Assembly: GCA_049671165.1 (NCBI GenBank)
Contig: JBATUN010000012.1
Coordinates: forward strand, 23,102 to 87,101
Source: Dehalococcoidia bacterium
Lineage (GTDB): Bacteria; Chloroflexota; Dehalococcoidia; GIF9; AB-539-J10
Length of the DNA stretch: 64,000 nucleotides
Direction of reading: 5' to 3'
Below, piece after piece: positions 1-41,561 of this stretch. The notes below the pieces were generated by a model. That model was not told where the DNA came from and did no database searches. It saw only the letters and a list, made by a program, of their open reading frames with translations. Each line of letters starts with the position of its first letter. The first letter of the stretch is position 1. Position numbers and translations under genes: made by a program.

Positions 1-2271
1 GGACTGGCCGTCAAACACAACCTTAAGGGATGGGTTTACAACACTTCAGAGGATGTCAAGATTGAGGTAGAGGGTGAAGCAGAAGCTATCAAGCAGTTTG
101 AGCGCGAACTTGAGACCAACGCCCCACCGCTGGCTCATATCGAGAACACAACTATTGAGTATCACCCACTCCAAGGCTATAAAAACTTTGAAATTCGGCA
201 TAGTCAGGCTCAGGAAGGGAAATACCAGCTTATTTCTACAGATGTCGCTACCTGCCAAGCTTGCCTTGATGAGTTGCTAAATCCTGAAGACCGCCGCTAC
301 CGCTATCCTTTTACCAACTGCACCAATTGCGGCCCACGCTTTACCATAATTGAAGGTATGCCCTATGACCGCCCCAAAACCACCATGCGCTACTTCCAGA
401 TGTGCCCCCGGTGCCAGGCGGAGTATGATAATCCTCTGGACCGTCGCTTCCATGCCCAGCCCAACGCCTGCCCAAAATGCGGTCCGCAGGTCCGGCTAGT
501 CGATAAACGGGGCAATCTGGTAACCGAGTCGAATCCGATAGCCGCTGCCAGTCAGTTCCTTAAAGAAGGGAAAATTGTAGCCATTAAAGGCCTGGGGGGC
601 TTTCTCCTGGCTTGCGATGCCACGAACGACACCGCAGTTAAGACATTGAGGCAGCGGAAGAAGCGCCCTTCCAAGCCCTTTGCCGTAATGGTTGCTACTT
701 TGGAGGAAGCGAAAAGGCATTGCTACGTCTTACCAGAGGAGGAAGAATTACTTACCTCGCCTCAAAGTCCCATCGTGCTCATGATCTGGAAGGAGGACTC
801 GTCTGTGTCCCGGGAGGTAGCGCCAGATTTATGGTTCTTAGGGACTATGCTGCCCTATACACCGCTTCACCACATACTGCTCAGGGATACTGGTCGGCCT
901 TTAGTAATGACCAGCGGCAATCTCAGTGAAGAGCCTATCGCCAGGGACAATGATGAAGCCTTGAGGAGGCTTTCGGGGATTGCCGATTACTTTTTGGTCC
1001 ATAATCGGGACATCTATTCTCGCTATGACGATAGCGTGGCCATGGTAGAAAGGGGTACAAGCCAGCTCGTCAGGCGGGCGCGTAGCTATGCTCCCTATCC
1101 CATCCGCCTGCCGTTTCAAGCCAGGCAGGTACTTGCTTGCGGCGCTGAGGAGAAAAATAGTTTCTGTCTGACCAAAGATAAATATGCCTTCTTGTCGCAG
1201 CATATCGGCGATATGGAGAATATGGAAACCCTGGAACATTTCTATAGCACCATATCCCTGTACAAGAAACTTTTCCATGTAGAGCCTGAAGTTGTTGCCC
1301 ATGACCTCCACCCTGATTATCTGGCCACGAAGTATGCCCAAGAGTTAGGCGAGTCCGGTATGAAGCTCGTTCCGGTCCAGCACCACCACGCTCATATCGC
1401 CAGTTGCATGGCTGATAATGGGCTGGAGTCCCCGGTTATCGGCGTGGCCTTCGATGGCACAGGAATGGGTGGGGATGGAAATATCTGGGGAGGGGAATTC
1501 CTGGTCGCCGACTACCGTGATTATAGAAGGGCAGGACATCTCGAATACCTGCCTTTGCCCGGCGGAGCCGCAGCTATAAAAAGACCGCGTCGCACTGCCA
1601 TTGGCTATATTCTCACTCTATTAGGAGAAAATGCTCTCAACGCTGTCATTGCGAGCGGAGCGAAGCAATCTCAACTAACTTCTATCGGGCAGGTTACTGA
1701 ATTTGAGGTGGAGATTATCAAGCGTCAGATAGAAAGGAAGATAAATTCGCCGCTTTGCTCAAGCATGGGACGCCTTTTTGATGCCATATCAGCCCTGCTG
1801 GGCATAAGGGGCGAGATAGACTATGAAGGACAGGCGGCGGTGGAGTTGGAAATGGCTGCTTACTCTTCTGTCATTGCGATGAACGTAAGTGACAAAGCAA
1901 TCTCCCATGCTCAGGAACGCTACCCATACCGCATAGTAGAAGACGAGGGAATAAGAATCGTGCGACTGAAGGACCTGCTGTCAGCCGTGATAGAAGACTT
2001 ACATCAAGGTATCTCAAAGGGGATGATATCACTCAAATTCCACAACACCGTGGCTCGGATGATAAACGAGATGTGTCACTTGATAGCCAATGAAACCAGC
2101 ATCTCTCAAGTTGCCTTAAGTGGCGGCGTATTTCAGAATCGCCTACTGTTGAAAAAAACAGTCAACTTGCTCGAAAGCAGCGGTTTCCAGGTTTTTACCC
2201 ACAGGCAAGTGCCCTGTAATGATGGTGGCATCTCCCTGGGGCAAGCCGTTATCGCCAATTTCGCCATCTAA
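1..2271 (+). CDS. hypF: Carbamoyltransferase HypF (5' end lies outside the window)
   Basis: Frame-1 ORF open from base 1. It has an acylphosphatase-like N-terminus (VKHNLKGWVYNTSEDV), paired CxxC zinc fingers (CQACL...CTNCGPRF, CPRC...CPKCGP), a YrdC-like segment and a Kae1-like C-terminus. Two in-frame copies of the small repeat sit at 1644-1670 and 1869-1902. Confidence 0.9.
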   Translation, partial: GLAVKHNLKGWVYNTSEDVKIEVEGEAEAIKQFERELETNAPPLAHIENTTIEYHPLQGYKNFEIRHSQAQEGKYQLISTDVATCQACLDELLNPEDRRYRYPFTNCTNCGPRFTIIEGMPYDRPKTTMRYFQMCPRCQAEYDNPLDRRFHAQPNACPKCGPQVRLVDKRGNLVTESNPIAAASQFLKEGKIVAIKGLGGFLLACDATNDTAVKTLRQRKKRPSKPFAVMVATLEEAKRHCYVLPEEEELLTSPQSPIVLMIWKEDSSVSREVAPDLWFLGTMLPYTPLHHILLRDTGRPLVMTSGNLSEEPIARDNDEALRRLSGIADYFLVHNRDIYSRYDDSVAMVERGTSQLVRRARSYAPYPIRLPFQARQVLACGAEEKNSFCLTKDKYAFLSQHIGDMENMETLEHFYSTISLYKKLFHVEPEVVAHDLHPDYLATKYAQELGESGMKLVPVQHHHAHIASCMADNGLESPVIGVAFDGTGMGGDGNIWGGEFLVADYRDYRRAGHLEYLPLPGGAAAIKRPRRTAIGYILTLLGENALNAVIASGAKQSQLTSIGQVTEFEVEIIKRQIERKINSPLCSSMGRLFDAISALLGIRGEIDYEGQAAVELEMAAYSSVIAMNVSDKAISHAQERYPYRIVEDEGIRIVRLKDLLSAVIEDLHQGISKGMISLKFHNTVARMINEMCHLIANETSISQVALSGGVFQNRLLLKKTVNLLESSGFQVFTHRQVPCNDGGISLGQAVIANFAI
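1644..1670 (+). repeat. Small structured repeat copy 1 (TGTCATTGCGAG-N-GAAGCAATC), in-frame inside hypF
   Basis: tgtcattgcgagcggagcgaagcaatc, translated VIASGAKQS within HypF. Confidence 0.75.
1869..1902 (+). repeat. Small structured repeat copy 2, in-frame inside hypF
   Basis: tgtcattgcgatgaacgtaagtgacaaagcaatc, translated VIAMNVSDKAI. Confidence 0.65.
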
Positions 2272-2288
2272 AGAGTCACTTCCCCATT

Positions 2289-2325
2289 TGTCATTGCGAG
2301 GCTGGCAAAGCCACCCGAAGCAATC
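2289..2325 (+). repeat. Small structured repeat copy 3 (intergenic, after hypF)
   Basis: tgtcattgcgaggctggcaaagccacccgaagcaatc. Confidence 0.8.
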
Positions 2326-2366
2326 CCTTTGTGAAAAAAGAATCGACTCTGCTTTACTTCCCCACC

Positions 2367-2404
2367 TGTCATTGCGAGTCCCGATCCATCGGGACGTGGC
2401 AATC
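2367..2404 (+). repeat. Small structured repeat copy 4 (intergenic), with inner hairpin tcccgat/atcggga
   Basis: tgtcattgcgagtcccgatccatcgggacgtggcaatc. Confidence 0.8.
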
Positions 2405-2429
2405 TCATTGGGGAAAGATTTGCCCCTTT

Positions 2430-3704
2430 TTACGGCTGCCAGCTCAGGAAAGGGTAGGTCTGCTCATCAACGATATTCCAGATGTAGGAACGGTTGCGCG
2501 CGTCAGCATTAGCGACTGCGATTATGTTCCACCCTGCCCCTGAGAACGTGGCGATGTCCTTCATTCCGGTGGTGGTCTGGCCGATCCCGCCAGCCGAAGT
2601 AGCTTGTCCGCTAGGTTCGATATCCCAGAAGGAGTCGCTCACAGTGCCCTTGTTGTATCCCACCAGACCACCAACCTGCGAGGAGCCAGTCACACTGCCG
2701 ATGGAATAGGAGTGGGTCACGCTACCATAATAATTCACTCCCACCAGACCACCAATACGCGAACCACCGGTCACGCTGCCTATGGAATAGGAGTTGCTCA
2801 TACTCCCCTTGTAGTACCAATTATCCCCCACGAGACCGCCGACAGACCAGTTGCCAGTCACGCTGCAGCTGGAGTAGGAGTTGCTCAGAGTAGCCTGATT
2901 CCATCCCACCAGACCGCCAACACGTGAATCACCAGTCACGCTGCCGGCGGAATGCGAATTATTCATAATGCCCCCATTGTGCCCCACGAGACCGCCGGCA
3001 TGCTCTTCTCCACTGACGCTGCCTGTGGAATAGGAGTTGCTCATGGTGCCTTCACTATGTCCTACCAGACTGCCAACGTAATCATTGCCAATCACAGTAA
3101 CGTTCACCATGCCGATATCTTTGATGACCCCTTCCTGCCCGATCTCACCAAAAAGCCCTACATGGTCTTCGTCAGGGCGATTGATAAACAAGTCCTCTAG
3201 CGCATATCCCTGACCCTCGAAACTCCCAACAAACTGGTCATCAGAAGTTCCAACCGGCTGCCACCCCTGTCCCTGATTGGCTGTCTCACTCGCTAGTTCC
3301 ATATAACCGGCAGTACTAGAATCGAGGTCGTTCATGAGGATGTACCTGGCGCCCAAGTTGTTCCTGATATCATGCAAATCATACCAGTCTCGTATTTCCC
3401 ATATTTCTGGGGCAAAGTTAGCGAGGATAGAATAGCGGCCGTTCATGATGACGGTAGTTGTGGCGGCATTGACGTTGGCAATGGCGCCCACTTCGCCAGT
3501 CCAACTGGCAAAGTGGGCGCCATCCTCAGGCTCGGCCGCCAGGTTGACTACCGTCCCCTTGCCGTAGGTGAAGGTCGCCTCGCCGGGTGTGGTTACCTGA
3601 CCGCCTTCGGTGCTGGAGACAGTGAGGTCATACTGGACAAAGATGCAGCCTACCATGGCGCCTATTAAGGCTAGCGCAATTAGAAAGATGCCAACTTTTG
3701 CCAC
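2430..3704 (-). CDS. Surface/secreted protein with tandem GLUG-type repeats (GGLVG)
   Basis: N-terminal TM/signal segment (MAKVGIFLIALALIGAMVGC). At least 9 repeats of SNSYS.GSV.G...GGLVG, typical of the GLUG motif domain. Confidence 0.6.
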   Translation of the reverse strand: MAKVGIFLIALALIGAMVGCIFVQYDLTVSSTEGGQVTTPGEATFTYGKGTVVNLAAEPEDGAHFASWTGEVGAIANVNAATTTVIMNGRYSILANFAPEIWEIRDWYDLHDIRNNLGARYILMNDLDSSTAGYMELASETANQGQGWQPVGTSDDQFVGSFEGQGYALEDLFINRPDEDHVGLFGEIGQEGVIKDIGMVNVTVIGNDYVGSLVGHSEGTMSNSYSTGSVSGEEHAGGLVGHNGGIMNNSHSAGSVTGDSRVGGLVGWNQATLSNSYSSCSVTGNWSVGGLVGDNWYYKGSMSNSYSIGSVTGGSRIGGLVGVNYYGSVTHSYSIGSVTGSSQVGGLVGYNKGTVSDSFWDIEPSGQATSAGGIGQTTTGMKDIATFSGAGWNIIAVANADARNRSYIWNIVDEQTYPFLSWQP

Positions 3705-3821
3705 GTAACAGTTCAGCTTTCTCAGAATCCCCAGGTTATACTATATTGTATATCACCCCGCCGCACAGTCAACGGGTCGCTTTGGCGTGTGCGCCACCTG
3801 GGAGATCAGCCCATGATGAGT

Positions 3822-4361
3822 CTACTTGCCTTGTCGTAGGAAGAGGAACATGAGCAGGGCAGCGATGCTTTTGGCATCGCAGATTTCGCCCGAGGCAATA
3901 AGACGGGGTATCTCATCGGGGGAACCGCGGACCAGCTCGATATCATCAGTATCCTCAGCTACGAGACGAGCGGGCACAAGGTCAGTAGCCATAAAACAAT
4001 GGAGGTACTCCGTGCCATAGCCCGGAGTGGCGTAAAAGCCACCCAATTTGTCTATCTTCCGGGGGAAATAGCCAATCTCCTCCTGTAATTCGCGGCGCAC
4101 AGAGTCGACGGGCTCTTCGCCGGGATCAATGCCACCAGCCGGTATTTCCAGAAGAAACCTGTCCACGGCGTGGCGGAACTGGCGGACCATAAGGATATTA
4201 CCTTGTTCATCAAGGGCCACCACCGCTATGCAATCGCTGTGCTCCACTACCTCTCTAGTGGTTTTTGTGCCGTCAGCTTTCTCCACGGTGTCCACACGTA
4301 TGTTTACTGCACGCCCGTGATAAATCTGTTGGGTAGCTAGCTTCTTTTCCGGCTTCACCAC
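3822..4361 (-). CDS. NUDIX hydrolase (ADP-ribose pyrophosphatase-like)
   Basis: Nudix box GGIDPGEEPVDSVRRELQEEIGY. Confidence 0.8.
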   Translation of the reverse strand: MVKPEKKLATQQIYHGRAVNIRVDTVEKADGTKTTREVVEHSDCIAVVALDEQGNILMVRQFRHAVDRFLLEIPAGGIDPGEEPVDSVRRELQEEIGYFPRKIDKLGGFYATPGYGTEYLHCFMATDLVPARLVAEDTDDIELVRGSPDEIPRLIASGEICDAKSIAALLMFLFLRQGK

Positions 4362-4576
4362 ACTCTTGCTACTCAGCCAAAATGACGTTGCTTTGCGTGT
4401 AGGGGCGAGGCTTGTCCTCGCCGGAACGGTCTAACGGGGAGGGTACAAGACCCTCCCCTACGATTTGATTCTTCGATCTCCCCGTTAAGATAAGGGGGAT
4501 AAAGGGGGTTATGAATGTTTCTCAGCCTCCCCAGAATGATATTGCTGAACGCCTTCGACATAATGTTCTCATAGCC

Positions 4577-5041
4577 TCAAAGGTGGCGAATAAGAGCCAC
4601 CTCATCGCAATCGGGGAACTTGGGACAGCGATAGCATTCCGCCCAGACCTTCTGGGGTAGCTCTTTTTTGTCGATTAGTTGGAAGCCGTGTTTTTCAAAG
4701 AAAGCCGGCTTGCGAACGAGGCAAAAAACCCTGGGTATCCCTAGCTCCTTCGCGTCGCTGAGACAGGCCTGGATCAGCAAGGAGCCAATCCTCTGGTTCT
4801 GTTCCTGTTCATCTACAGCCAGAGACCTGATTTCTGCTAAATCAACCCAGGTAACCTGTAACGCTGCGCAAGCGATAACCCGACCTGCTTTCCTGACCAC
4901 GAAGTAATCTCTAATGCCATCATATATCTCAGATAAGGCGCGAGGCAACATCTCGCCTTTATCAGCAAAATGACTTATCAACCGGTGCATGGAGTTAGCA
5001 TCGCCCACCCTTGCCCTATCAACCTTCATATCAGCTTCCAT
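4577..5041 (-). CDS. GNAT family N-acetyltransferase (amino-acid acetyltransferase-like)
   Basis: GNAT acetyl-CoA binding motif region RIGSLLIQACLSDAKELGIPRVFCLV. Overlaps the nadK stop by 11 nt. Confidence 0.7.
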   Translation of the reverse strand: MEADMKVDRARVGDANSMHRLISHFADKGEMLPRALSEIYDGIRDYFVVRKAGRVIACAALQVTWVDLAEIRSLAVDEQEQNQRIGSLLIQACLSDAKELGIPRVFCLVRKPAFFEKHGFQLIDKKELPQKVWAECYRCPKFPDCDEVALIRHL

Positions 5042-5852
5042 TTCTTCCTCCTCCCAGTTTTTGCCACAGCGAATTATAGAAATAGGTTGGCTCGTGAATT
5101 CTTAAGAAGCGAGCTGTGTGAGGGCTGAGCTTCACTCTGACAGTTTGCCCGTCTGATAACGGTAATTCAACTTGTCCGTCAATGCTAAGTATGACCTTCT
5201 CTCTGGGGGCAACCTTCAAGTCAACTATGCTCTGTGAAGACACTACCAGGGCATGACTCAATCCGAGGTGGCAGGATATTGGTTGGAGGACAATTTCCTT
5301 GGATTGAGGATGAAGAATCGGTCCGCCAGATGCCAGAGAATAGCTGGTGCTCCCGGTAGCAGTGGCGACAATTACGCCATCAGCCCGGTAAGTGGTTAGC
5401 GCCGTGCCATCAATCTCGGCTTCTATGTTAACCAGGCGAACCGCCACGCTGTGTATCACCACATCATTCAAGGCATGAAAGCTTTTGTCTGCAACTTGAG
5501 CCTCGAGCATGGCCCTTTCCTCAATCCAGCCTTTCCCATCGAGCAAACCGGGCAAATAAGACAGGACCTCGTCGCCGTCTATCTCCGTGATAAATCCCAG
5601 CCTACCCAGGTTTATGCCTAAAATGGGCACTGACAAGGGGGCTACGATTCGAGCAACACGGAGGATAGTGCCATCTCCGCCAATACTGAGAATCAGCTCC
5701 GTCCCCACGACTTGGGATCTAGCTTTATCCTCGTCCCTGGTTGAGCACCGCCATGAAGAGACTCCCTGAGAGGATAGAAACTTCTGCAGCTTCTCGCTTA
5801 AGTCTCGGGCTTTCTCACGTAGAGGGTGATACAGAATGCCAATATGCTTCAC
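5031..5852 (-). CDS. nadK: NAD(+) kinase
   Basis: GGDGTIL motif (SIGGDGTILRVARI) and NAD kinase-like length and architecture. Confidence 0.85.
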   Translation of the reverse strand: MKHIGILYHPLREKARDLSEKLQKFLSSQGVSSWRCSTRDEDKARSQVVGTELILSIGGDGTILRVARIVAPLSVPILGINLGRLGFITEIDGDEVLSYLPGLLDGKGWIEERAMLEAQVADKSFHALNDVVIHSVAVRLVNIEAEIDGTALTTYRADGVIVATATGSTSYSLASGGPILHPQSKEIVLQPISCHLGLSHALVVSSQSIVDLKVAPREKVILSIDGQVELPLSDGQTVRVKLSPHTARFLRIHEPTYFYNSLWQKLGGGRNGS

Positions 5853-5945
5853 GGGTGAACGAAGTCTAGCACTGGCAAATTCTGGCTGTCAAACTATCTA
5901 ACAGAACCAACTCATATCGCTTTCCAGGAACCAAGTAAGGAATGC

Positions 5946-6743
5946 TTACTTCCCCTTGAACTTGGGCAAGGGCTTCTTCTCCAGGAATGCTTTCACACTC
6001 TCGCGGTGGTCCTCACTCTGCCGGCATATCCGTATGGAGTCGGTCTCAAGGTCAAGCTGACGCGCCAGGCTGTCGAAGAGACCGCGCCACAGCATCTTCT
6101 TGGTTAGTTCCACGGAAAGAGGTGCCTGCTGAACAATCTTGTTAGCCAATTCCCCGCTTGTCCTCATCAAGTCATCAGGTGGAACGACCCGACTGACAAG
6201 GCCGATTCGCAGGGCTTCGGCGGCATCGATTAACTCGGCGGTGTACATTAATTCCAGAGCGTTGGACATCCCTGCGGCTAGGGGCAGGTAACATGTCAGG
6301 CCGAAGTCAGGCACCAGTGCTCGTGCCACCTGGGCAACACCAAACCTGGCTGTCTCCGAGGCTATTCTGATGTCACAGCTCAGTGCTATAGCCAGACCGG
6401 CGCCAACACAAGGGCCGTTTACGGCGGCAATGGTTGGTTTTAGCAGCTTGGGGAAGATATCAGCAGCCGGCCACCCCGTTACCTGGAGACGGTTGAAGCG
6501 AGACTGCTCAGCAGCCCCAGTCAGCACCTGCATGGCGGAAACATCAGCGCCGGAGCAGAAACCACGCCCGGCACCGGTAACAATCAATACCCTGACATTG
6601 TCATCGCGGGCCACTTCATCTACTGCCAGAGGCAGGTTCATTCCCATCTTCACGGTAAGGGCGTTCAACTTATTCGGTACATTGAGGGTCAAAGTGGCAA
6701 CGCCGCAATCATCCTTTTCCAGTAACAGGTCTTCATACTCCAT
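5946..6743 (-). CDS. Enoyl-CoA hydratase/isomerase (crotonase) family protein
   Basis: Crotonase signature LIVTGAGRGFCSGADV and oxyanion-hole region. Confidence 0.8.
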   Translation of the reverse strand: MEYEDLLLEKDDCGVATLTLNVPNKLNALTVKMGMNLPLAVDEVARDDNVRVLIVTGAGRGFCSGADVSAMQVLTGAAEQSRFNRLQVTGWPAADIFPKLLKPTIAAVNGPCVGAGLAIALSCDIRIASETARFGVAQVARALVPDFGLTCYLPLAAGMSNALELMYTAELIDAAEALRIGLVSRVVPPDDLMRTSGELANKIVQQAPLSVELTKKMLWRGLFDSLARQLDLETDSIRICRQSEDHRESVKAFLEKKPLPKFKGK

Positions 6744-6828
6744 CCTGGTTCACCTCCTGTTCATACGGTTAGTTGAAAGAACCATTATAGCAGGGGCAGA
6801 GTAATTCTTTTGACCATCCCGCACCCAC

Positions 6829-7833: not shown

Positions 7834-7862
7834 AGGCTTGCTCTATCTCTATCCGATAAATC

Positions 7863-9171: not shown

Positions 9172-9260
9172 GACTTCCCGTATTTTAGCCTAAGTCCACC
9201 TATAATACAATCCAAGGGAGGGTCGACTCTATTTTTCTTTGAGGCGAGCCTTTCTTGCTG

Positions 9261-9298
9261 TGTCATTGCGAGTCCCGATTTATCGGGACGAAGCAATC
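9261..9298 (+). repeat. Small structured repeat copy 5 (intergenic, upstream of hypC operon end)
   Basis: tgtcattgcgagtcccgatttatcgggacgaagcaatc, near-identical to copy 4. Confidence 0.8.
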
Positions 9299-9520
9299 TT
9301 GGAGGGGAAAGAGAGAGTTGTGGCCTTTTTGTTAAAAATGCTTGCCAGGGCAGGGCAAGATATAGTAATGCGGGATATAATAATTCTTAATAAGATTTTA
9401 ACAAAAGTGGTATATCATATTATAAGCTAGAGATTTCGGGAAAAGTGAACTTTGCAAACAGGAGACTTTACTTTTACACGTACATAGGCGGTTCAGTTTT
9501 TAGATGACGGATAATGGGAG

Positions 9521-11155
9521 GTGACAACGAAGAATAGAAAAATTCTCTTACCAGCTCTGCTCTCTATTGCCCTCGTCTTCAGCCTGATTCTTCCCGCGGT
9601 GATTGCTGAAGCTTCAGCAACTACCCTACAGGGGACGTGGGTGCTGGAATATTACGGAGAACCGGGGAATCTCATAGCACCTTACCCGGACAAAGATACT
9701 ACACTCACAATCAGTGGCTCTGACTTTAGTGGACATGCCGGCATAAATTCGTATTATGGGAAGTGGAAAGTGGTTGGGGACAAATTATTGATTATAGAGG
9801 GCTATAGTACAGAAGCGGCTGGCCCCGAACACCTGATGGAACAGGAAGATCGCTATTTTCGTACCCTTTTTGTCCCTGAGGTGACTTACGAGATCACCAA
9901 TGGTAAATTGACCCTATCCTCCAGCGAAGGACTGCTCGTATTCATAAGTGAGGCTGCTGACAGGGGCCACGGGGAATGCAACGTCGGCAACTGGACGGAC
10001 ATCAAGCAGGTCGCCGCAGGCTCCAGCCACACCGTGGGTCTTAAGTCTGACGGCACCGTGGTCGCCGTGGGACGCAACGATTATGGGCAGTGCGACGTCG
10101 GCAACTGGACAGACATCACCCAGGTCGCCGCAGGCGGCCATCACACGGTGGGGCTCAAGGACGACGATACTGTGGTCACTGTGGGAGATAACTCCAACGG
10201 GCAGTGCGATGTCGGTAACTGGACAGACATCACCCAGGTCGCCGCAGGCGGTGCACACACGGTGGGGCTCAAGGCAGACGGCGGCGTGGTCGCCGTGGGG
10301 TTCAACCACTACGGGCAGTGCAATGTCGGCGGCTGGGGAAATATCACCAAGGTCGCTGCAGGCTTGTATCACACAGTGGGGCTTAAGGCCGACGGCACAG
10401 TGGTTGCCGTGGGATTGAACGACTACGAAGGGCAGTGTGATGTCGGCAACTGGACAGACATCACCCAGGTCGCCGCAGGTTACTCTCACACAGTGGGGCT
10501 CGAGTCCGACGGCACCGCGGTCGCCGTAGGATGGAACGACGATGGGCAGTGCGATGTAGAGGGCTGGACGAACACCACCCAGGTCGCCGCAGGCTTCTAT
10601 CACACGGTGGGGCTTAAATCCGACCACACGGTGGTCGCCGTGGGGTTCAACTACTACGGGCAGTGCAATGTCGAGGGCTGGACGGACATCATCCAGGTCG
10701 CCGCAGGCGACTGGCACACGGTGGGGCTTAAATCAGACGGCACCGTGGTCGCCGTGGGTGGTGCCATCCCGGACGATGCTATCCCGGACGATGCTATCCC
10801 CGAAGCCGGGTGCTTCATCGCCACCGCAGCCTACGGCACATCAATGGCAGAGGAAATACAAGTTCTGCGTGAGTTCAGGGATGAATACCTCCTGATCAAC
10901 TCGCTGGGACAAGCCCTGGTAGGCCTTTATTACAGGGTCAGCCAGCCGATGGCCGAGTTCATAACTGAGCATCCCAGCCTGAAGCCGATAGTGAGGGCTG
11001 GGCTGGTGCCCACTGTGGCCATGAGCACCGTAGTTGTCAACACCACTCCGGCCGAGAAGATAGTCATATTAGGCTTGCTGGCGCTGGTTTCAGTGGCACT
11101 GGCTGTATGGGCAACGAGTCGGCGAGGCAGAGGGCCAGAATATACCTCAGGGTGA
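9521..11155 (+). CDS. Secreted/anchored protein: META (HslJ-like) domain + ~9 RCC1-like beta-propeller repeats + C-terminal CFIATAAYG anchoring module + TM helix
   Basis: Signal peptide. META-like block LQGTWVLEYYG...AGINSYYGKW...LTLS. Tandem ~39-aa repeats CDVGNWTDITQVAAG.HTVGLK.DGTVVAVG.N.YGQ. C-terminus DAIPDDAIPDDAIPEAGCFIATAAYG...REFRDEYLL followed by a hydrophobic helix. GTG start, with the SD immediately adjacent (atypical spacing). Confidence 0.7.
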   Translation: MTTKNRKILLPALLSIALVFSLILPAVIAEASATTLQGTWVLEYYGEPGNLIAPYPDKDTTLTISGSDFSGHAGINSYYGKWKVVGDKLLIIEGYSTEAAGPEHLMEQEDRYFRTLFVPEVTYEITNGKLTLSSSEGLLVFISEAADRGHGECNVGNWTDIKQVAAGSSHTVGLKSDGTVVAVGRNDYGQCDVGNWTDITQVAAGGHHTVGLKDDDTVVTVGDNSNGQCDVGNWTDITQVAAGGAHTVGLKADGGVVAVGFNHYGQCNVGGWGNITKVAAGLYHTVGLKADGTVVAVGLNDYEGQCDVGNWTDITQVAAGYSHTVGLESDGTAVAVGWNDDGQCDVEGWTNTTQVAAGFYHTVGLKSDHTVVAVGFNYYGQCNVEGWTDIIQVAAGDWHTVGLKSDGTVVAVGGAIPDDAIPDDAIPEAGCFIATAAYGTSMAEEIQVLREFRDEYLLINSLGQALVGLYYRVSQPMAEFITEHPSLKPIVRAGLVPTVAMSTVVVNTTPAEKIVILGLLALVSVALAVWATSRRGRGPEYTSG

Positions 11156-11190: not shown

Positions 11191-11217
11191 GATTGCTTCG
11201 CTGCGCTCGCAATGACA
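11191..11217 (-). repeat. Small structured repeat copy 6 (reverse orientation, upstream of ilvD)
   Basis: gattgcttcgctgcgctcgcaatgaca is the reverse complement of tgtcattgcgagcgcagcgaagcaatc. Confidence 0.8.
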
Positions 11218-34861: not shown

Positions 34862-34881
34862 GTAGCAAAGGAGGGGAAAAG

Positions 34882-35139
34882 ATGAGTTATTCTTCTGAAG
34901 AAATTGACGATGAACAGCTAGCTATAATAGACGATTTAGAAATGCTGCGCGAGGATTTGGTGGGCGAGTTGCAGGCCATTAACCAGTATCATGGGCATGT
35001 ATTAATCCTGGAGAATGAAGAGGCTGTGACTATACTGGAACATATTATTGAAGAAGAGAAAGAGCATGTTGCAGAGTTGCTCAGACTAATTCAGAGTCTC
35101 GACCCTGTTCAGGCTGGCAAATTTAGGGAGATTTCATAG
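34882..35139 (+). CDS. Small ferritin-like/rubrerythrin-like helical protein (hypothetical)
   Basis: Start placed at the ATG after SD AAGGAGGGG. Paired E..H helices (ELQAINQYHGH...EEEKEHVAEL). Confidence 0.4.
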   Translation: MSYSSEEIDDEQLAIIDDLEMLREDLVGELQAINQYHGHVLILENEEAVTILEHIIEEEKEHVAELLRLIQSLDPVQAGKFREIS

Positions 35140-35427
35140 AGATGTCACACAGAGTGAAACTAAAGGGTGTAAGGAAGAATAGAGGTAAGCATAAGAAGAA
35201 GAAGAAGAAGAGGTAGGTATTCTCCGGTGCCGAAACTGGCTGTCACTAGTGGTAACTTCCAATATCTTCTCCAGTCCTATCTTTTCAGAAACTGGCGTTG
35301 AGTCAGAAAGTGGAGGACTTAGTGCATCTATACTGTAAAGGCTGATGTGCGAAAGTGGAATTTGATGATATGGGTGGTGTGATGGAGGCAGGCAAACATA
35401 GGTAGGAGTTTGGAGTAGGTAAGGGAG

Positions 35428-35772
35428 ATGCCGTATTGTCCTCAGTGTCGGGATGAATTTCAGGACTGGGTGAAGGTCTGCCCGGACTGCAAAGTTGCTC
35501 TCGTGGCGGAATTGCCTCTTCAACCCAAGCATGAAGAAGTGGACGAGCCGCTGGTATACATTGCTACTGCCCCCAATGAATCGGTCGCGAGCATGTGGTC
35601 AGGAGTTCTTGAGGAGCATGGCATTCGCTGCCTACTGAAAAGTGCGAATCTTCGAGCAGCCATGTATGCCTTCACTTATAACATGACGTGCCAAATTCAT
35701 GTGTTGGCATCGCAGGCTGAGCGGGCAAAAGAGATATTAGCTCCCTTGCTCGAAATTGACGCGCGAGAGTGA
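35428..35772 (+). CDS. Zn-ribbon + DUF2007-like (putative signal-transducing) small protein
   Basis: CPQC...CPDC ribbon, then a C-terminal ~70-aa module resembling DUF2007. Confidence 0.45.
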   Translation: MPYCPQCRDEFQDWVKVCPDCKVALVAELPLQPKHEEVDEPLVYIATAPNESVASMWSGVLEEHGIRCLLKSANLRAAMYAFTYNMTCQIHVLASQAERAKEILAPLLEIDARE

Positions 35773-35775
35773 ATC

Positions 35776-37059
35776 TTGAAGATACTAGTCGTTGGTGGTG
35801 GAGGCAGGGAACACACCCTAGTGTGGAAGATTGCCCGGAGTCCCCGGGTGGAGAGAGTTTTTGCCGCCCCTGGAAATGCCGGCACAGCCGCTATTGCGGA
35901 AAACCTGAATTTGCATCCCACCGATATAGAAGGGCTGGGCAAGGCCGCTAAAGAAAAAGGCATTGATCTTGTCATTGTTGGCCCTGAGGCGCCCCTAGCT
36001 TCAGGCATAGTGGACTATTTTGATAAGCTTGGCATCGCTATTTTCGGTCCTACCAAAGCAGCCACCCAGATAGAATCGAGCAAGGTTTTTGCGCGAAATC
36101 TAATGGAGAAATGTGGCATTCCTTGTCCCAAAGGCGCCATTTTCTCATCTTATTCTGAAGCTCGGGAATTCCTTCGAAAACAGCATCTACCCGTCGTCAT
36201 CAAGGCCGACGGATTAGCGGCTGGGAAAGGTGTGATTATTGCTGGTTCTCTGACAGAAGCTCACAAAACCCTCGGCGATATCATGAAGGCTAAAGTCTTC
36301 GGCTCCGCAGGGGATAGAGTGATGATTGATGAGTATCTTGGCGGTCAGGAAGTAAGCCTCATAGCTTTCACCGATGGTAAAACAGTCTCGCCTATGATGC
36401 CAGCCTGCGACTATAAGAAAATCGGAGATAATGACCAGGGTCCCAACACGGGAGGCATGGGAAGTTACAGTCCGCCGGGTTTTTTCTCCGCCCAGATGAC
36501 AGAAAAGGTAACCAGGGATATTTTGTTGCCCACTGTAAAGGCTATGGCGAAAGAAGGCCTGCCTTATAAGGGAGTGCTCTATGCCGGGTTAATGATTGTC
36601 GATGGAAAGCCTGTGGTGCTGGAGTTTAACGCTCGCTTTGGCGACCCGGAGACTCAGGCCATTTTGCCTCTTCTCAAGACTGACCTCGTAGATGTACTTA
36701 TGGCAGTGATTCAGGGCAACCTCGACCGGGTGAACATAGAGTGGAGTCCGGAGGCCTGCGTAGGTGTAGTTATGGCTTCGGGTGGCTATCCTGGCAGCTA
36801 TAAAACCGGTTTTCGCATACAAGGGATAGAGGATGTGGATGAAGATGTGCTGGTTTTCCATGCGGGAACCAATTTAGGAAATGATGGCCTAATTTATACC
36901 GACGGCGGGCGAGTGCTTACCGTAGCAGGTGTGGGCAAGAACATGGCTGAGGCTCGGGAAAAGGTTTACCGCAACATCTCTAACATTTGCTTCGAAGGCT
37001 GTTATTATCGCAAAGACATTGCTTTGAGAGAGATAGATAAGATAAAATCTAAACCCTAA
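35776..37059 (+). CDS. purD: Phosphoribosylamine--glycine ligase
   Basis: N-terminus MKILVVGGGGREH and an ATP-grasp region. Confidence 0.95.
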   Translation: MKILVVGGGGREHTLVWKIARSPRVERVFAAPGNAGTAAIAENLNLHPTDIEGLGKAAKEKGIDLVIVGPEAPLASGIVDYFDKLGIAIFGPTKAATQIESSKVFARNLMEKCGIPCPKGAIFSSYSEAREFLRKQHLPVVIKADGLAAGKGVIIAGSLTEAHKTLGDIMKAKVFGSAGDRVMIDEYLGGQEVSLIAFTDGKTVSPMMPACDYKKIGDNDQGPNTGGMGSYSPPGFFSAQMTEKVTRDILLPTVKAMAKEGLPYKGVLYAGLMIVDGKPVVLEFNARFGDPETQAILPLLKTDLVDVLMAVIQGNLDRVNIEWSPEACVGVVMASGGYPGSYKTGFRIQGIEDVDEDVLVFHAGTNLGNDGLIYTDGGRVLTVAGVGKNMAEAREKVYRNISNICFEGCYYRKDIALREIDKIKSKP

Positions 37060-37182
37060 AAGGAAATCAAAAGGCAAAAGTAGAAATGCAAAATGACAGG
37101 TCAGAATACAAAAAATAAGTTTAGCAAAGCCTTTTTGCATTTTGAATTGTAATTCTAATTTTTTGTCTTTGATTTTTGACAT

Positions 37183-37662
37183 TTGTGGAGGATTTACATG
37201 GCAATGGCATTAGTGGGCGTAGTCATAGGTAGCAAGACAGATAACGAACTGATACAGCCAGCGCTGGACATGCTGAAGCAATTGGGCATTGATTATGAAC
37301 TCTCCGTTATCTCAGCCCACAGAAATCCCGAGAAGTCAAAGGACTATGGCTTGGGGGCAGAGAAGAGGGGGCTCAGAGTTATCATCGCCGCCGCCGGTTA
37401 TGCCGCTCACCTTCCCGGTGTCTTGGCTAGCTGGACAACCTTGCCTGTAATCGGTGTGCCCTTACCCACCAGTGAGCTTAAAGGCATGGACGCTTTGCTA
37501 TCTATAAGCCAGATGCCGGGGGGAGTGCCGGTAGCCTGTATGGGTATTGGAGCAAGCGGAGCCAAGAATGCTGCCTTGCTCGCCGTCCAGATTTTAGCCA
37601 TCGAGCATGGAGAGATAAAAGAAGCCTATCGCAAATATAAGGAAGAACTAGCAAGAGGATAG
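37183..37662 (+). CDS. purE: N5-carboxyaminoimidazole ribonucleotide mutase
   Basis: PurE fold. N-terminus VGVVIGSKTD. Start likely 37198 or 37204. Confidence 0.9.
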   Translation: MWRIYMAMALVGVVIGSKTDNELIQPALDMLKQLGIDYELSVISAHRNPEKSKDYGLGAEKRGLRVIIAAAGYAAHLPGVLASWTTLPVIGVPLPTSELKGMDALLSISQMPGGVPVACMGIGASGAKNAALLAVQILAIEHGEIKEAYRKYKEELARG

Positions 37663-37663
37663 T

Positions 37664-39019
37664 ATGATTGAGCGCTACTCTAGGCCTCAGATGAAGAAGA
37701 TCTGGTCTGAAGAGAACAAATTTGGCCAATGGCTGAAGGTGGAGATAGCTGTTTGTGAAGCCTGGGCTGAGCTGGGCGAAATCCCTCGAAAAGATATAGT
37801 CAAAATAAGGAAAGCCAGCTACAACTTGAATCGTATCGCCAATTTTCTGAAGGTGACCCACCATGATATGACGGCTTTTCTTAACTCGGTGGCTGAAAGC
37901 CTGGGGCTGGAGTCGCGCTTCATACATCTTGGTCTTACATCTTCGGATGTTATGGATACTGCCCTTGGCTCGCAACTGACCCAGGCAGCTGATATTTTGG
38001 CCAAAGACGTAGCCGAGCTTATATCCGTACTGGAGAGTAAAGCTATGGAGTACAAATACACTATTATGATGGGCCGGACCCACGGGGTTCATGCTGAGCC
38101 AACTACCTTTGGCTTGAAGATGGCCCTGTGGACTGAAGAAATGAAGCGTAATGCTCAAAGGCTGGCTGAAGCCAAGCAAATTATCTCTGTGGGTAAAATA
38201 TCCGGAGCAGTGGGCACTTATGCCACTGTGCCTCCTCAGGTTGAGAGAATAGCTTGCACTAGGTTAGGGCTTGCTCCGGCTCCTATATCAAGCCAGATAG
38301 TCCAGCGTGACCGCCATGCCCAATTCCTGACCACTTTGGCTATTATCGCCAGCTCCCTGGAGAAATTTGCCACTGAGATTAGAGGTCTCCAACGGACGGA
38401 AGTTCGGGAGGTTGAAGAGCCTTTTGAGGCAGGGCAAACAGGTTCCTCGGCAATGCCTCATAAGCGAAACCCTGAGCTTTGTGAGCGTATCTGTGGACTG
38501 GCTCGATTAATAAGAGGCTATGCTGTTACTTCTCTGGAGAACATCGCCTTGTGGCACGAACGTGACATCAGTCACTCATCAGCAGAGCGAATTATTCTGC
38601 CTGATTCCTGTCTGGCCGTAGATTACATGTTACATGTATTTACCTCAATAATGGACGGGCTCAAAGTTTATCCGGAAAATATGCGTCATAATATCGAGCT
38701 CACCCAGGGGGTTGTCTTTTCCCAAAGGGTGCTCCTTGCATTAGTAGGTAAAGGCCTACCGCGCGGAGAAGCTTATGAAATAGTGCAGGACAATGCCATG
38801 AAAGCCTGGGAGAAAAGGAAAACCTTTCTGAGCTTGCTTGAAGCAGATAAGAGAGTAACTCATCATTTGAGCAAAAAGGAACTGAGATCTCTCTTTGATT
38901 ATGGTTACTACATGAACCATGTGGACGATATCTTTAAACGATTGAACTTGACCAAAACCAGGCGGGGAAAGAAAGCTGGTAAGACTGAGTCAACTGAATT
39001 GGCTCCTAGGGCAGTGTAG
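37664..39019 (+). CDS. purB: Adenylosuccinate lyase
   Basis: Fumarate-lyase signature GSSAMPHKRNP. 451 aa. Confidence 0.95.
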   Translation: MIERYSRPQMKKIWSEENKFGQWLKVEIAVCEAWAELGEIPRKDIVKIRKASYNLNRIANFLKVTHHDMTAFLNSVAESLGLESRFIHLGLTSSDVMDTALGSQLTQAADILAKDVAELISVLESKAMEYKYTIMMGRTHGVHAEPTTFGLKMALWTEEMKRNAQRLAEAKQIISVGKISGAVGTYATVPPQVERIACTRLGLAPAPISSQIVQRDRHAQFLTTLAIIASSLEKFATEIRGLQRTEVREVEEPFEAGQTGSSAMPHKRNPELCERICGLARLIRGYAVTSLENIALWHERDISHSSAERIILPDSCLAVDYMLHVFTSIMDGLKVYPENMRHNIELTQGVVFSQRVLLALVGKGLPRGEAYEIVQDNAMKAWEKRKTFLSLLEADKRVTHHLSKKELRSLFDYGYYMNHVDDIFKRLNLTKTRRGKKAGKTESTELAPRAV

Positions 39020-39077
39020 TGATAGGGCCTTCACTTCAAATCCTGTATCTTAGCGCGTAACGGAGGAAAACGGAAGG

Positions 39078-40529
39078 ATGAAGACTGCGAAAGAATACCT
39101 TGATAGCATGAAGAAGATGCGTTTTGAACTCTACATGTTTGGAGAGCGGGTTACCAATCATGCCGATAATCCGATTATTAGACCGACAAGGAATTGTGTT
39201 GCTGCTACTTATGAACTTGCCGGAGAGTCCGAATTTCCGCAATATCACAACGTTATGACAGCCACCTCTCATCTAACGGGAAAGAAGATAAATCGTTTCT
39301 GTCACATTCATCAGAGTACTGAAGACCTGGTTAACAAGTCAAAAATGGGCAGAGGATTAGGTGCTTATACTGGTTCTTGCTTTCAGCGTTGTGTCGGGAT
39401 GGACACCTTGAACACTCTGTCGATAGTAACCTACGACATTGACCAGAAGTATGGGACCGAATACAACAAACGTTTCTTAGAATACTTGAGGTACGTACAG
39501 GATGAAGACCTCGTTTGTTGTGGTGCCATGACTGATGCCAAGGGCGATAGAAGTCTTCGTCCAGCCGAGCAAGCCGACCCTGACCAATACCTTCACGTAG
39601 TGGAGGAGAAGTCGGATGGCATTGTAGTTCGTGGGAACAAAATGCACCAGACAGGAGCTGTAAATTCACATGAAATCGTCTGCATGCCGACCAGAGCTAT
39701 GCGTGGAGAAGATAAGGATTATGCCGTTTCTTTTGCCTTGCCCAGCGACACCCAAGGGATCATATACATCTATGGCAGACAGCCGTGCGACACAAGAAAA
39801 ATGGACAGCCCGAATATGGATGTCGGCAACATTCTTTATGGGGGGCAGGAGTGCATGGTTGTTTTTGACGACGTGTTTGTTCCCTGGGACCGAGTCTTCA
39901 TGTACAAGGAATATGACTTTGCCGGCGACCTGGTAGAGAAGTTTTCTGCCTATCACCGCCAGAGTTATGCCTGCAAATCAGGTATGGGCGATGTCTTGAT
40001 TGGCGCCAGTCAACTAATTGCTGAATATCAAGGTACTGCCAAAGCTTCCCACATTAGAGACAAAATCATTGACATGATTCAGTTCAATGAGACCCTGATG
40101 TCTTGCAGTCTTGCCTGCGCTTATGAAGGCCACAGAGAAGCTTCCGGGACTTACCTTGTAGACACTTTGAGAGCCAATGTCTCTAAACTAAACGTGACGA
40201 AATTTCCTTATGATATAGCCAGACTGGCCCAGGATATCGCTGGCGGCTTAATAGTAACCATGCCTTCTGAAAAGGACCTTAAGCATCCCAAGATAGGCAA
40301 ATATGTTGGTAAGTATCTGAAGGGCGTTGATGGTGTTCCGATAGAGAATCGCATTCGTGTATTACGACTGATTGAGAATCTCACCGCGGGTTTAGGAGCC
40401 GCATGTTATTTGACAGAATCGATGCATGGTGCCGGATCACCTATGGCTCAGAAGATTATGATTGGCAGGCTGGCCAATATGGAGAGAATGAAAAGCAGCG
40501 CCAAGAGGTTGTGCGGCATTGAATCGTAG
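39078..40529 (+). CDS. 4-hydroxybutyryl-CoA dehydratase / 4-hydroxyphenylacetate 3-hydroxylase family protein (AbfD/HpaB-like)
   Basis: 483 aa. N-terminus MKTAKEYLDSMKKMRFELYMFGERV. A CxxxC pair (CFQRCVGMD) plus downstream H/C, as in the [4Fe-4S] site of 4-hydroxybutyryl-CoA dehydratase. Confidence 0.65.
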   Translation: MKTAKEYLDSMKKMRFELYMFGERVTNHADNPIIRPTRNCVAATYELAGESEFPQYHNVMTATSHLTGKKINRFCHIHQSTEDLVNKSKMGRGLGAYTGSCFQRCVGMDTLNTLSIVTYDIDQKYGTEYNKRFLEYLRYVQDEDLVCCGAMTDAKGDRSLRPAEQADPDQYLHVVEEKSDGIVVRGNKMHQTGAVNSHEIVCMPTRAMRGEDKDYAVSFALPSDTQGIIYIYGRQPCDTRKMDSPNMDVGNILYGGQECMVVFDDVFVPWDRVFMYKEYDFAGDLVEKFSAYHRQSYACKSGMGDVLIGASQLIAEYQGTAKASHIRDKIIDMIQFNETLMSCSLACAYEGHREASGTYLVDTLRANVSKLNVTKFPYDIARLAQDIAGGLIVTMPSEKDLKHPKIGKYVGKYLKGVDGVPIENRIRVLRLIENLTAGLGAACYLTESMHGAGSPMAQKIMIGRLANMERMKSSAKRLCGIES

Positions 40530-40607
40530 TTACTGGGTTGCGTTTATGGAGAAGCGACTTCTTGAACCTTTACTGAGAACATCCTAGTCTGGGCTAAGGA
40601 GGCAATT

Positions 40608-41561
40608 GTGGGTAGCAGCTCGACAGTCTTAGTGGATACCGACTTACCTCTAACTTTGTTTCGACGGGGCAAGGTAAGAGACGTCTATGGTCTAGATAAT
40701 GGACTACTCATCGTGTCCACTGACCGCATCTCTGCCTTCGATGTTGTCCTACCCTGTGGGATTCCTGATAAGGGGAAAGTCCTCAACCAGCTTTCTGCCT
40801 TCTGGTTTCAGAAAACTACCCATATCCTGCCTAACCACCTTATCAACGTGATTGATGGCGAGGATACACTTCAGGATGTCATTGCGAGGGCTGAAAGCCC
40901 GAAGCAATCTCAAGGGAAAAGACATTCGTCACCTACACTCGGCCCAAGCCTTATCGGCCGCTCTATGCTTGTGGCTAAGGCCGAACGCATACCCGTAGAA
41001 TGCGTTGTTCGAGGCTATCTCTCCGGCTCAGCATGGGCGGAGTATAAGGAGACTGGAAAAGTGGGCGATATCCGTTTGCCCTCGGGAATGAAGGAGAGTC
41101 AGGAACTGTCCCAGCCTGTTTTTACCCCCACTACGAAGAGCGAAACAGAGCATGACCGCCCTTTGACTAATAAAGACATAGGAGAACTGGGCATCGGCAA
41201 AATTTTTGAAGAACTGGAACAAAAAAGCCTGCGTATCTATAGCTATGCTCGGGATTATGCCAAACGCCGGGGCATAATAATTGCCGATACGAAGTTCGAG
41301 TTTGGTTTCGTCAATGGTAAATTAGCCCTTATTGATGAGCTGCTGACGCCGGACTCAAGTCGTTTCTGGGATGCCAGTCAATATGAGGTTGGCCATGCGC
41401 AGCCCAGCTTTGATAAACAGCCGGTTCGCGACTGGCTTTCAGATTCAGGCTGGGATAAAAGACCGCCAGCGCCTATGTTGCCGCCGGAAGTAATAGAGAG
41501 CACATCGAAAAGATATGGCGAGGTATACAGTCGGTTAACCGGGGGCATTCTCAGAGGATAA
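40608..41561 (+). CDS. purC: SAICAR synthetase with a ~30-aa in-frame insertion
   Basis: PurC core (GKVRDVYG, VSTDRISAFD, GRSMLVAKAERIPVECVVRGYLSGS). The insertion at about 40860-40950 contains repeat copy 40877-40909 translating VIARAESPKQSQ. Confidence 0.9.
   Translation: MGSSSTVLVDTDLPLTLFRRGKVRDVYGLDNGLLIVSTDRISAFDVVLPCGIPDKGKVLNQLSAFWFQKTTHILPNHLINVIDGEDTLQDVIARAESPKQSQGKRHSSPTLGPSLIGRSMLVAKAERIPVECVVRGYLSGSAWAEYKETGKVGDIRLPSGMKESQELSQPVFTPTTKSETEHDRPLTNKDIGELGIGKIFEELEQKSLRIYSYARDYAKRRGIIIADTKFEFGFVNGKLALIDELLTPDSSRFWDASQYEVGHAQPSFDKQPVRDWLSDSGWDKRPPAPMLPPEVIESTSKRYGEVYSRLTGGILRG
40877..40909 (+). repeat. Small structured repeat copy 7, in-frame inside purC
   Basis: tgtcattgcgagggctgaaagcccgaagcaatc (inner hairpin gggct/agccc), translated VIARAESPKQS. 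Confidence 0.75.

Follow-up and report, generated by a model that had tools for sequence, protein, structure and literature searches.

A TGTC-tagged hairpin repeat translated within HypF and PurC of a Dehalococcoidia bacterium is probably a subfamily of Ssn-type nuclease sites

A 64-kb stretch of DNA from an uncultured Dehalococcoidia bacterium (Chloroflexota; contig JBATUN010000012.1, positions 23,102 to 87,101; hereafter the window) contains a family of short hairpin repeats, which lie between genes and also, in frame, within the genes of two conserved enzymes, HypF and PurC. These repeats probably represent a subfamily of the repetitive extragenic palindromes (REPs) tagged with CGTC or TGTC, equivalent to the NTS-like Ssn-related motifs (SRMs), which are hairpins recognized by small GIY-YIG nucleases of the Ssn type. 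The partner of the repeat is likely a GIY-YIG nuclease acting on single-stranded DNA (ssDNA) and, by analogy with the characterized enzyme SsnA, the relevant structure is most likely a strand-specific ssDNA hairpin rather than a double-strand cruciform. The subfamily and its hosts are new, but the class is known, and the repeats do not constitute a new kind of system.

All copies in the window share the layout TGTC-ATTGC-GA-(variable inner hairpin)-GAA-GCAAT-C, followed by a tail of the C-T-C form. The subfamily can be abbreviated as ATTGCGAG...GAAGCAAT or, in its oriented form, as GTCATTGCGAG-hairpin-CGAAGCAATC. The exact 10-mer GTCATTGCGA occurs seven times, with 0.07 occurrences expected in 64 kb, and none of 100 shuffled windows contained even two copies of it. 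When one mismatch was allowed, 9-mers of the repeat halves were by themselves at chance level in the window; the signal thus resides in the exact, paired motif. A scan of the window for YGTC, a 5-bp stem, a loop, the complementary stem strand, and C detected no second repeat family. At genome scale, motif matches were far above chance, contrary to the outcome that the first-pass annotation of the window had named as refuting. The consensus of 189 copies from many phyla is YYGTC-ATTGC-GA-G..C-GAA-GCAAT-C-Y-M-G. The conserved unit therein extends beyond the stem and includes the 5' tag (T/C)GTC and a C(T/C)(C/A) tail, which reads C-(C/T)-(A/C) in the 189 copies and CTC or CCC in the window. CGTC is the commonest tag in other phyla, whereas the window copies all carry TGTC. 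In a set of 103 copies for which only the core had been required, the stem is preceded by G in 100, T in 100, and C in 96 copies and followed by C in 100, and the first tag position (-4) is T in 86 copies and C in 16.

This arrangement corresponds to features of two published classes. In CGTC-tagged REPs, an unpaired tag, CGTC or often TGTC or CCTC, precedes a stem with AT at its start, a CCA-like tail follows, and the inverted dimers, which have a conserved spacer, are predominantly of one type, the others being rare (PMC3733652). The NTS of Neisseria (CGTCATTCCCGCGMAVGCGGGAATCYRG) is bound and cut by SsnA, a 94-aa GIY-YIG protein, as ssDNA only and on one strand only. Binding depends crucially on the C that follows the palindrome and cleavage on the three bases that precede it, exchange or extension of the loop is tolerated, and the RNA form of the site is not bound (PMC11893778). 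The conserved G, T, and C before the stem and the C behind it are therefore the positions that SsnA needs for cleavage and binding, respectively. Moreover, SRMs flank ssn genes across bacteria (PMC11893778).

A corresponding gene linkage exists for the repeat described here. In a locus from a member of the Planctomycetota (L066), a motif-guided scan of small open reading frames (ORFs) revealed a 96-aa GIY-YIG ORF (PF01541, E = 6e-18) with a repeat copy 10-13 nt from each of its ends. The encoded protein belongs to a very large family whose members are ~70% identical across phyla. Four homologues, from Anaerolineales, Chloroflexi, Marinimicrobia, and Deltaproteobacteria, have the repeat on both sides within 200 nt, the Anaerolineales locus with the stem variant GTTGC/GCAAC, and a viral homologue (L335) is repeat-flanked as well. 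The repeat was thus found on both sides of all six examined GIY-YIG genes of 95-99 aa (L066, L327, L328, L331, L332, and L335). Hairpins of the CGTC type that differ from this repeat flank more distant homologues (45-51% identity), a pattern that points to co-variation of enzyme and site as described for the Ssn system (PMC11893778). These other hairpins are TGTCATTCCGCAGGAATC, CGTCAGCCCGGGCTTGACCCGGGC, and TGTCATCCCAGCGAAAGCTGGGACCCA (L071 330-410; L299 10480-11000; L336; L337/L338); L071 also contains the ATTGCGAG family elsewhere, so that several families can coexist in one genome. The invariant residues Y8, Y19, and E66 of the GIY-YIG proteins have the spacing of Y6, Y17, and E64 in SsnA, a likeness in residue spacing only, and the nearest relatives of known structure are the uncharacterized UPF0213 proteins 1zg2 and 1ywl. 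Clustering of ORFs (>=80-90 aa) from 120 genomic and 120 viral loci yielded only ABC-F ATPases, SDRs, and phage structural genes as recurrent neighbors, because the size cut-offs and the rarity of the ~96-aa gene caused the nuclease to be missed.

The repeat is widely distributed. A scan with one genome per species returned at least 120 loci, and among the matches listed the repeat occurs in about 17 phyla, cultured isolates included. These matches stem from Alpha-, Gamma-, and Deltaproteobacteria, Myxococcota, Campylobacterota, Chloroflexota, Bacteroidota, Ignavibacteriota, Cyanobacteria, and Melainabacteria, and also from Patescibacteria, Zixibacteria, Planctomycetota, Omnitrophota, Latescibacterota, Gemmatimonadota, Armatimonadota, and Firmicutes; none of those listed is archaeal. 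Genomes of E. coli contain no copies, and collections of plasmids and cultured phages contain few. Many viral contigs carry the repeat (at least 120 loci in the viral scan), and the copies within one viral contig all lie on the same strand, be it the sense or the antisense strand of the genes, which fits a strand-specific DNA process better than a role as RNA. Several copies in short intergenic gaps were seen in L221 (seven, antisense), L242 (six, sense), and L209 (three, sense), and four tandem copies with a 33-nt period in L252 (2695-2818). A portal-like phage ORF in L268 (1397-2984, minus strand) contains several in-frame segments encoded by the repeat (VIASPSPSVILSPSPPVILTLNEVKGK...ASRNDR), one of which has the TLNEVKGK inner type also found at the first hypF site of Dehalococcoidia relatives.

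Neighboring copies in other phyla form 61 inverted pairs of the '+-' type, compared to eight '-+' and eight tandem pairs, with spacers of ~24-26 nt. The '+-' pairs have the layout of the repeat-gene-repeat unit of L066 minus the gene. A more far-reaching version of the nuclease model is that the repeat-nuclease-repeat unit is a self-propagating ssDNA element, whose nuclease would copy gene-less dimers and monomers and which would move between phyla, partly on phages; judging from the present data, this is rather unlikely. The commonest interiors of the repeat are GCGNAGC and GGAGCGNAGCGAC, the former being a classic extra-stable DNA mini-hairpin. Short palindromes, inverted dimers with conserved spacers, GCGNAGC tips like those of enterobacterial REPs, and the uniform strand within viral contigs, which is expected of ssDNA transposition, would also suit a classical REP/REPIN family mobilized by a REP-associated tyrosine transposase (RAYT) of the Y1 HUH type. 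However, the tag is YGTC and not GTAG, a tblastn search of the window and of ~3 Mb of loci with ~600 copies, made with E. coli RayT, had no match at E < 1, and the GIY-YIG gene is the only recurrent neighbor found. The 2013 study of CGTC repeats likewise found no tyrosine transposase gene flanked by them (PMC3733652), and mobilization by a RAYT is highly improbable.

The first-pass annotation had reported at least seven copies of the repeat in the window. All seven were recovered at the same positions, copy 2 in a degenerate form and copy 4 with a variant 3' half. Copy 1 (1644-1670, plus strand) is a short form, TGTC-ATTGC-GA-GCGGAGC-GAA-GCAAT-C, which is translated in frame within hypF as VIASGAKQS. 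The degenerate copy 2 (1869-1902, plus strand; GCGAT...AAAGCAATC) also lies in frame in hypF and encodes VIAMNVSDKAIS. Copy 3 (2289-2325, plus strand) is intergenic, 18 nt past the hypF stop codon, with the inner hairpin GGCTGGC-AAA-GCCACCC. In tandem with it, copy 4 (2358-2415, core 2367-2404, plus strand) has the 3' half GTGGCAATC and the outer stem TTCCCCA/TGGGGAA and is located between hypF and the convergent gene 2430-3704(-). Copy 5 (9217-9322, core 9261-9298, plus strand) has the inner hairpin GTCCCGAT-TTA-ATCGGGAC, is enclosed by a longer lineage-specific inverted repeat (GGGTCGACTCTATTTTTC ... GGGGAAAGAGAGAGTTG), and is found between the divergent genes hypD(-) and 9521(+). Copy 6 (11191-11217, minus strand), another short form with GCGCAGC as its interior, is antisense to the flanking genes and lies 36 nt past the stop codon of gene 9521-11155(+). 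Copy 7 (40877-40909, plus strand) is in frame in purC, where it encodes VIARAESPKQS and has the inner hairpin GGGCT-GAAA-AGCCC.

In the predicted fold, a 2x3 GA/GAA internal loop separates the ATTGC/GCAAT stem from the inner hairpin. This fold agrees with the stem closing a variable inner hairpin that had been proposed initially and adds the internal loop. For the short copies, individual nearest-neighbor fold energies were not significantly stable. In contrast to these, the region of copy 4 (2352-2425) had fold z-scores of -4.36 (RNA) and -4.07 (DNA), and none of 200 shuffles was as stable. Inspection of the GA/GAA loop by eye for hammerhead, K-turn, and sarcin-ricin motifs led to their rejection, as required core bases are missing. 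The intergenic copies are enclosed by longer outer stems (TTCCCCA...TGGGGAA), and intergenic copies in this lineage are located within a longer inverted repeat, GGGTCAACTCTATTTTC...GGAAAATAGAGTTGACCC (window 9217-9322; L144 6490-6580). Downstream of hypF in the related locus L146, the outer hairpin is present without the core repeat. As judged from these sequences, the outer hairpin may constitute a terminator-like repeat family of its own, with the core lodged inside it. Full-text literature searches with the DNA strings of the repeat, in both orientations, and with the encoded peptides matched only unrelated primers.

According to sequence comparisons, the hypF and purC copies are insertions specific to this lineage, which keep the frame and are translated. 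Distant orthologues of both enzymes do not contain the peptides and some close relatives have empty alleles, whereas ancestral segments, the alternative envisaged at the outset, would recur in unrelated taxa. In PurC, the VIA..KQS signature is absent from all of ~100 representative proteins at <=61% identity. The nearest insert-free orthologues in this identity range have a loop that is 15-17 aa shorter, and the yeast and mycobacterial enzymes are at least 11 residues shorter at the site of copy 7. The first-pass annotation had assigned the purC copy to an insertion of ~30 aa. This estimate was too high, because the element itself codes for 11 aa and the loop exceeds that of the insert-free orthologues by 15-17 aa and that of the yeast enzyme by 11 aa. 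Copy 7 occupies the same position in 118 of 120 close homologues (80-100% identity) and is absent from two. The sequence of the empty allele is GAT GTT ATT^TCT CAG, without the 24-nt block, and that of the filled allele GAT GTC ATT GCGAGGGCTGAAAGCCCGAAGCAA TCT CAA. No duplication distinguishes the two, and the following 36-39 nt cannot be aligned. In one empty allele (L121 3255-3300), a run resembling tandem heptamers (CAGCTGA CAGCTGA CAGCTAT CAGCTGA) was observed at the same loop. The placement of copy 7 in a surface loop is suggested by the indel-rich alignment region; an AlphaFold2 model built from 31 close homologues reached a mean pLDDT of only 40.

Copies 1 and 2 are both located in the C-terminal Kae1-like subdomain of HypF, and the solved HypF structures 3vth and 4g9i have gaps or unrelated residues at both sites. 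The hypF comparison included 80 orthologous loci with 82-89% amino acid identity. At site 1, 14 of the 80 loci have an empty allele, which is 27 nt shorter, and the filled alleles amount to +27, +36, +39, +54, +63, and +72 nt. Site 2 is represented by empty alleles, again 27 nt shorter, and by alleles of +24, +27, +45, and +48 nt; intact versions in relatives encode VIARRVSDEAIS, VIARELDEAIS, and VIARPVPSEARELDEAIS. All allele lengths at both sites are multiples of three and contain no stop codons, and five of the six reading frames of the repeat core are open. The proposal that coding copies keep the frame in the manner of Rickettsia palindromic elements (RPEs) is thereby borne out for the three in-frame copies, and RPE-4 and RPE-6 even belong to the CGTC superfamily (PMC3733652). 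The further suggestion of a mobile or selfish element tolerated inside proteins holds with respect to in-frame tolerance; mobility is deduced only from the presence/absence alleles and the dispersal of the copies.

No target-site duplication was found in the empty/filled comparisons at purC, hypF site 1, and hypF site 2. This bears on whether the repeat could be an ordinary miniature inverted-repeat transposable element (MITE), that is, a deletion derivative of an insertion sequence with a DDE transposase and terminal inverted repeats. The inverted pairs in other phyla, GTCATTGCGAG...spacer...CTCGCAATGAC, do resemble terminal inverted repeats around a short spacer. Nevertheless, besides the missing duplications, single units are common, the window lacks inverted pairs, the neighborhoods contain no transposase, and the gene between inverted copies encodes a 96-aa GIY-YIG nuclease instead of a DDE enzyme. 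A MITE is thus very unlikely. From the MITE/REP-like cruciform of the first-pass annotation, the REP likeness (tag, AT-start stem, and tail) can be retained; the MITE component is disfavored by the lack of target duplications, and the cruciform most likely has to be replaced by the ssDNA hairpin.

The interior of the repeat is highly variable. Between the flanks GTCATTGCGA...GAAGCAATC, hypF site 1 harbors at least six unrelated inner hairpins, which include GCGAAGC, CCCTGAAC-GAA-GTGAAGGG, GYCCCGAT-TTY-ATCGGGRC, CCCCGATTTATCGGGG, a 34-nt form, and nested half-copy forms. The site after hypF is occupied in relatives by GGCTGGC-GAA-GCCAGCC, by GTCCCGAT-TTA-ATCGGGAC, or by no copy. Inner hairpins range in length from 5 to >45 nt, and the inner segments form hairpins more readily than shuffled sequences (mean z of -1.3 to -1.7, with z < -1.5 in 44-47%). 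In contrast to the interior, the core is constrained. The 13 core codons in hypF have a third-position diversity of 0.059, compared to a background of 0.25, and none of 100,000 random codon sets was as low. The core thus appears to be constrained as nucleotides, or homogenized, and not just conserved as protein. Allele types are scattered across the HypF tree (81 sequences). The HypF proteins of L131 and L181 differ in 0.9% of their residues, yet site 1 is filled in one and empty in the other, each with its own diverged 12-aa flank. Such near-identical proteins with opposite haplotypes indicate that recombination shuffles old alleles. A recurrent compound form, seen in several phyla, consists of a 5' half-copy (GTCATTGCGAG plus ~10 nt), a pyrimidine-rich spacer, and a full copy (L002, L007, L066 5022-5068, L124 1519-1571, L127/L136/L153/L184, L128/L129, and L242 135-190). 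That these compounds never have an extra 3' half suggests a directional copying or priming step.

Such diversity could mean that the repeats are relics, which no enzyme moves today and which persist and diversify by template switching during replication and short-patch gene conversion, aided by the hairpins. The unrelated inner hairpins between identical flanks at one orthologous site, the compounds of a half-copy and a full copy, and the mosaic hypF haplotypes would be consistent with this idea. It would also accommodate that filled alleles replace adjacent sequence, that empty sites resemble the flanks of the element, and that no nuclease gene is present in the window and ~1 Mb of related DNA. 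However, it explains neither why 20 nt are nearly identical across ~17 phyla and phages nor why a conserved nuclease gene is tightly linked, and these processes could operate alongside the nuclease model, not in its place. On balance, an origin of the pattern from relics alone is improbable, and template switching or short-patch conversion may contribute to the spread and diversification of the repeat.

Several observations weigh against the assignment to nuclease-recognized hairpins of the CGTC/SRM type. First, a search for an associated transposase or nuclease elsewhere in the genome, as advised by the first-pass annotation, met with partial success. A repeat-flanked GIY-YIG gene is found in other genomes, but no Ssn-like gene is contained in the window or in related Dehalococcoidia sequences of ~1 Mb in total, which in essence represent one neighborhood in 80 versions; UvrC accounts for the only GIY-YIG matches. 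Based on these data, the nuclease link can be regarded as seen in other genomes and as unproven in the Dehalococcoidia lineage. Second, the published SRM pattern HGTCWYN(0-2)YYVSBRHN(0-5)WNVSBRGN(0-2)RNCYNB matches the NTS but neither any window copy nor any consensus form, although the outer frame HGTC-AT...C-Y-N-B is common to the pattern and the window repeat. Third, CGTC-tagged REPs have an 8-9 bp stem and a 4-5 nt loop, whereas in the repeat the stem is 5 bp long and is followed by an internal loop and a hairpin that varies. These different dimensions make it a structural variant outside the four described CGTC families. Fourth, the filled alleles show no target duplication and have adjacent sequence replaced and not merely interrupted, which does not fit a clean insertion. 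Finally, the window copies are single or tandem without inverted dimers, and six of the seven are on one strand and sense to the genes, which also fits a role at the RNA level.

If the repeat worked mainly as RNA, the transcribed hairpin would serve as a terminator, 3'-end stabilizer, or processing site, and its conserved bases would be bound by an RNA-binding factor. Intergenic copies 18-36 nt past stop codons or between convergent genes would be in line with such a function, as would the different, terminator-like inverted repeat that L146 has at the same place. Some inner loops are of the GNRA type (GAAA), the extended hairpins are very stable as RNA, and most REPs have been argued to be transcribed (PMC3733652). 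On the other hand, Rfam at its gathering threshold detected no family in the window or in 18 diverse loci, and around copies 3 and 4 there was no match even at E <= 10. The inverted pairs that prevail in other phyla would cause both orientations to be transcribed, and the seven copies in the viral contig L221 are antisense to all neighboring genes. The commonest interior, GCGNAGC, is a DNA mini-hairpin, SsnA leaves the RNA version of the NTS unbound (PMC11893778), and the linkage to the GIY-YIG gene would be left unexplained. A primary role as RNA is therefore improbable; a secondary effect at the RNA level may exist for sense copies downstream of genes.

Under the favored nuclease model, the recognition chassis would comprise the unpaired YGTC tag, the 5-bp ATTGC/GCAAT stem, the purine-rich GA/GAA loop, and the invariant C with its short tail. 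By analogy with SsnA and the NTS, the nuclease would bind the folded hairpin only as ssDNA, with the C after the palindrome being critical, and would nick a few nucleotides upstream of the hairpin, where the three bases before the palindrome would be critical. If loop identity is as irrelevant as in the NTS, this would explain the free variation of the inner hairpin. The repeat might then spread from repeat-nuclease-repeat units in the form of monomers or inverted dimers, or existing copies might serve as templates for one another. Most copies presumably would land downstream of genes. The rare copies that enter a surface loop, have a length divisible by three, and maintain an open frame could survive and be translated.

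The gene hypF (1-2271, plus strand) has its 5' end beyond the left edge of the window, and purC, coding for SAICAR synthase, occupies 40608-41561 on the plus strand. The PurC protein of the window is 100% identical to one that NCBI assigns to a Dehalococcoidia metagenome-assembled genome. According to Pfam annotation, the first 20 genes of the window are all housekeeping genes, including hypF, hypD, a hypE-like gene, ilvD, ilvB/N/C, nrd, and nrdR, and no transposase is among these 20. The gene following hypF (2430-3704, minus strand) encodes a GLUG-repeat/InlB B-repeat protein. In relatives (L129, L130, L184, L192, L194, and L203), between 0 and ~4.6 kb of repeat-protein genes lie downstream of hypF, so this neighborhood is highly variable. 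Toward the other end of the window (52001-64000), the GC skew rises to +0.39 (52-60 kb) and the GC content declines to 0.45; three tRNA genes are located on the minus strand at 52100-52172, 58971-59042, and 59673-59744.

The findings connect unusual peptide segments inserted into core enzymes of this uncultured Dehalococcoidia bacterium with a recently characterized enzyme-site system, and would extend the Ssn-type system to the Chloroflexota, many other phyla, and viral contigs. They further imply that the published SRM search pattern misses at least one large subfamily. The loop tolerance of the nuclease is mirrored in evolution, where interiors at a single orthologous site differ completely between alleles, with ~20 recognition bases remaining unchanged even at synonymous positions. 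For genome annotation, the repeat explains the recurrent peptides VIASEAKQS, SLRGAKRSN, CHCERSEAI, RLLRFARND, and DCFASLAMT in 'hypothetical proteins'. In biotechnology, any subfamily of this kind might provide a new specificity for the site-specific cutting of ssDNA. Should the unit indeed be self-propagating, it would represent a transposon-like class whose enzyme is of the GIY-YIG type and not a DDE, HUH, or serine/tyrosine recombinase, and the HypF and PurC copies would owe their intact nucleotide sequence to being live nuclease sites.

Among known systems, the CGTC-tagged REPs (CGTC-1 to CGTC-4; Di Nocera, De Gregorio & Rocco 2013, BMC Genomics 14:522) share with the repeat the tag, the AT-start stem, and the 3-nt tail. 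Also alike are the location after genes, the occasional in-frame copies, and the lack of a flanking transposase, and the '+-' pairs that prevail in other phyla may correspond to the one predominant inverted dimer of these REPs; in-frame intragenic copies and the absence of a dedicated transposase are among the published traits of that superfamily, which includes the dRS3 of Neisseria and the RPE-4 and RPE-6 of Rickettsia (PMC3733652). CGTC-3 (CGTCATTGCCGGGCTTGACCCGGCAATCCA, as deduced from the listed peptide VIAGLDPAIH) even has the ATTGC...GCAAT chassis of the window repeats. However, none of the intragenic peptides listed for CGTC REPs is of the VIA..KQS type, and such REPs are unreported from Chloroflexi, Cyanobacteria, Patescibacteria, Planctomycetota, and the other phyla found here. 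RPE-4 and RPE-6, which are CGTC-4 and CGTC-1 in the 2013 paper, likewise are short palindromic elements that are translated in frame in conserved proteins. They differ in stem sequence (VIPAKAGI and VIPWLDHGI) and host clade, the former as judged from the encoded peptides. The REP/REPIN-RAYT systems resemble the repeat in their short hairpins, inverted doublets, single-copy repeat-flanked enzyme gene, ssDNA recognition, and long persistence, but have a GTAG tag instead of YGTC and a Y1 HUH transposase instead of a GIY-YIG nuclease, and no RAYT was found in the sampled loci. The SRMs and the NTS (Nat Commun 2025;16:2388, PMC11893778) differ in that the stem of the repeat is only 5 bp long (ATTGC) and continues into the GA/GAA loop and an open-ended inner hairpin, and in that the NTS rarely lies inside genes (2%), whereas enzyme genes contain three of the seven window copies in frame. 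Nonetheless, they share with the repeat HGTC before an AT-start stem and C plus Y-R/M-G behind it, the flanking of a ~95-aa single-domain GIY-YIG gene on both sides, the free loop, the wide range of phyla, and the Tyr/Tyr/Glu spacing of the enzyme.

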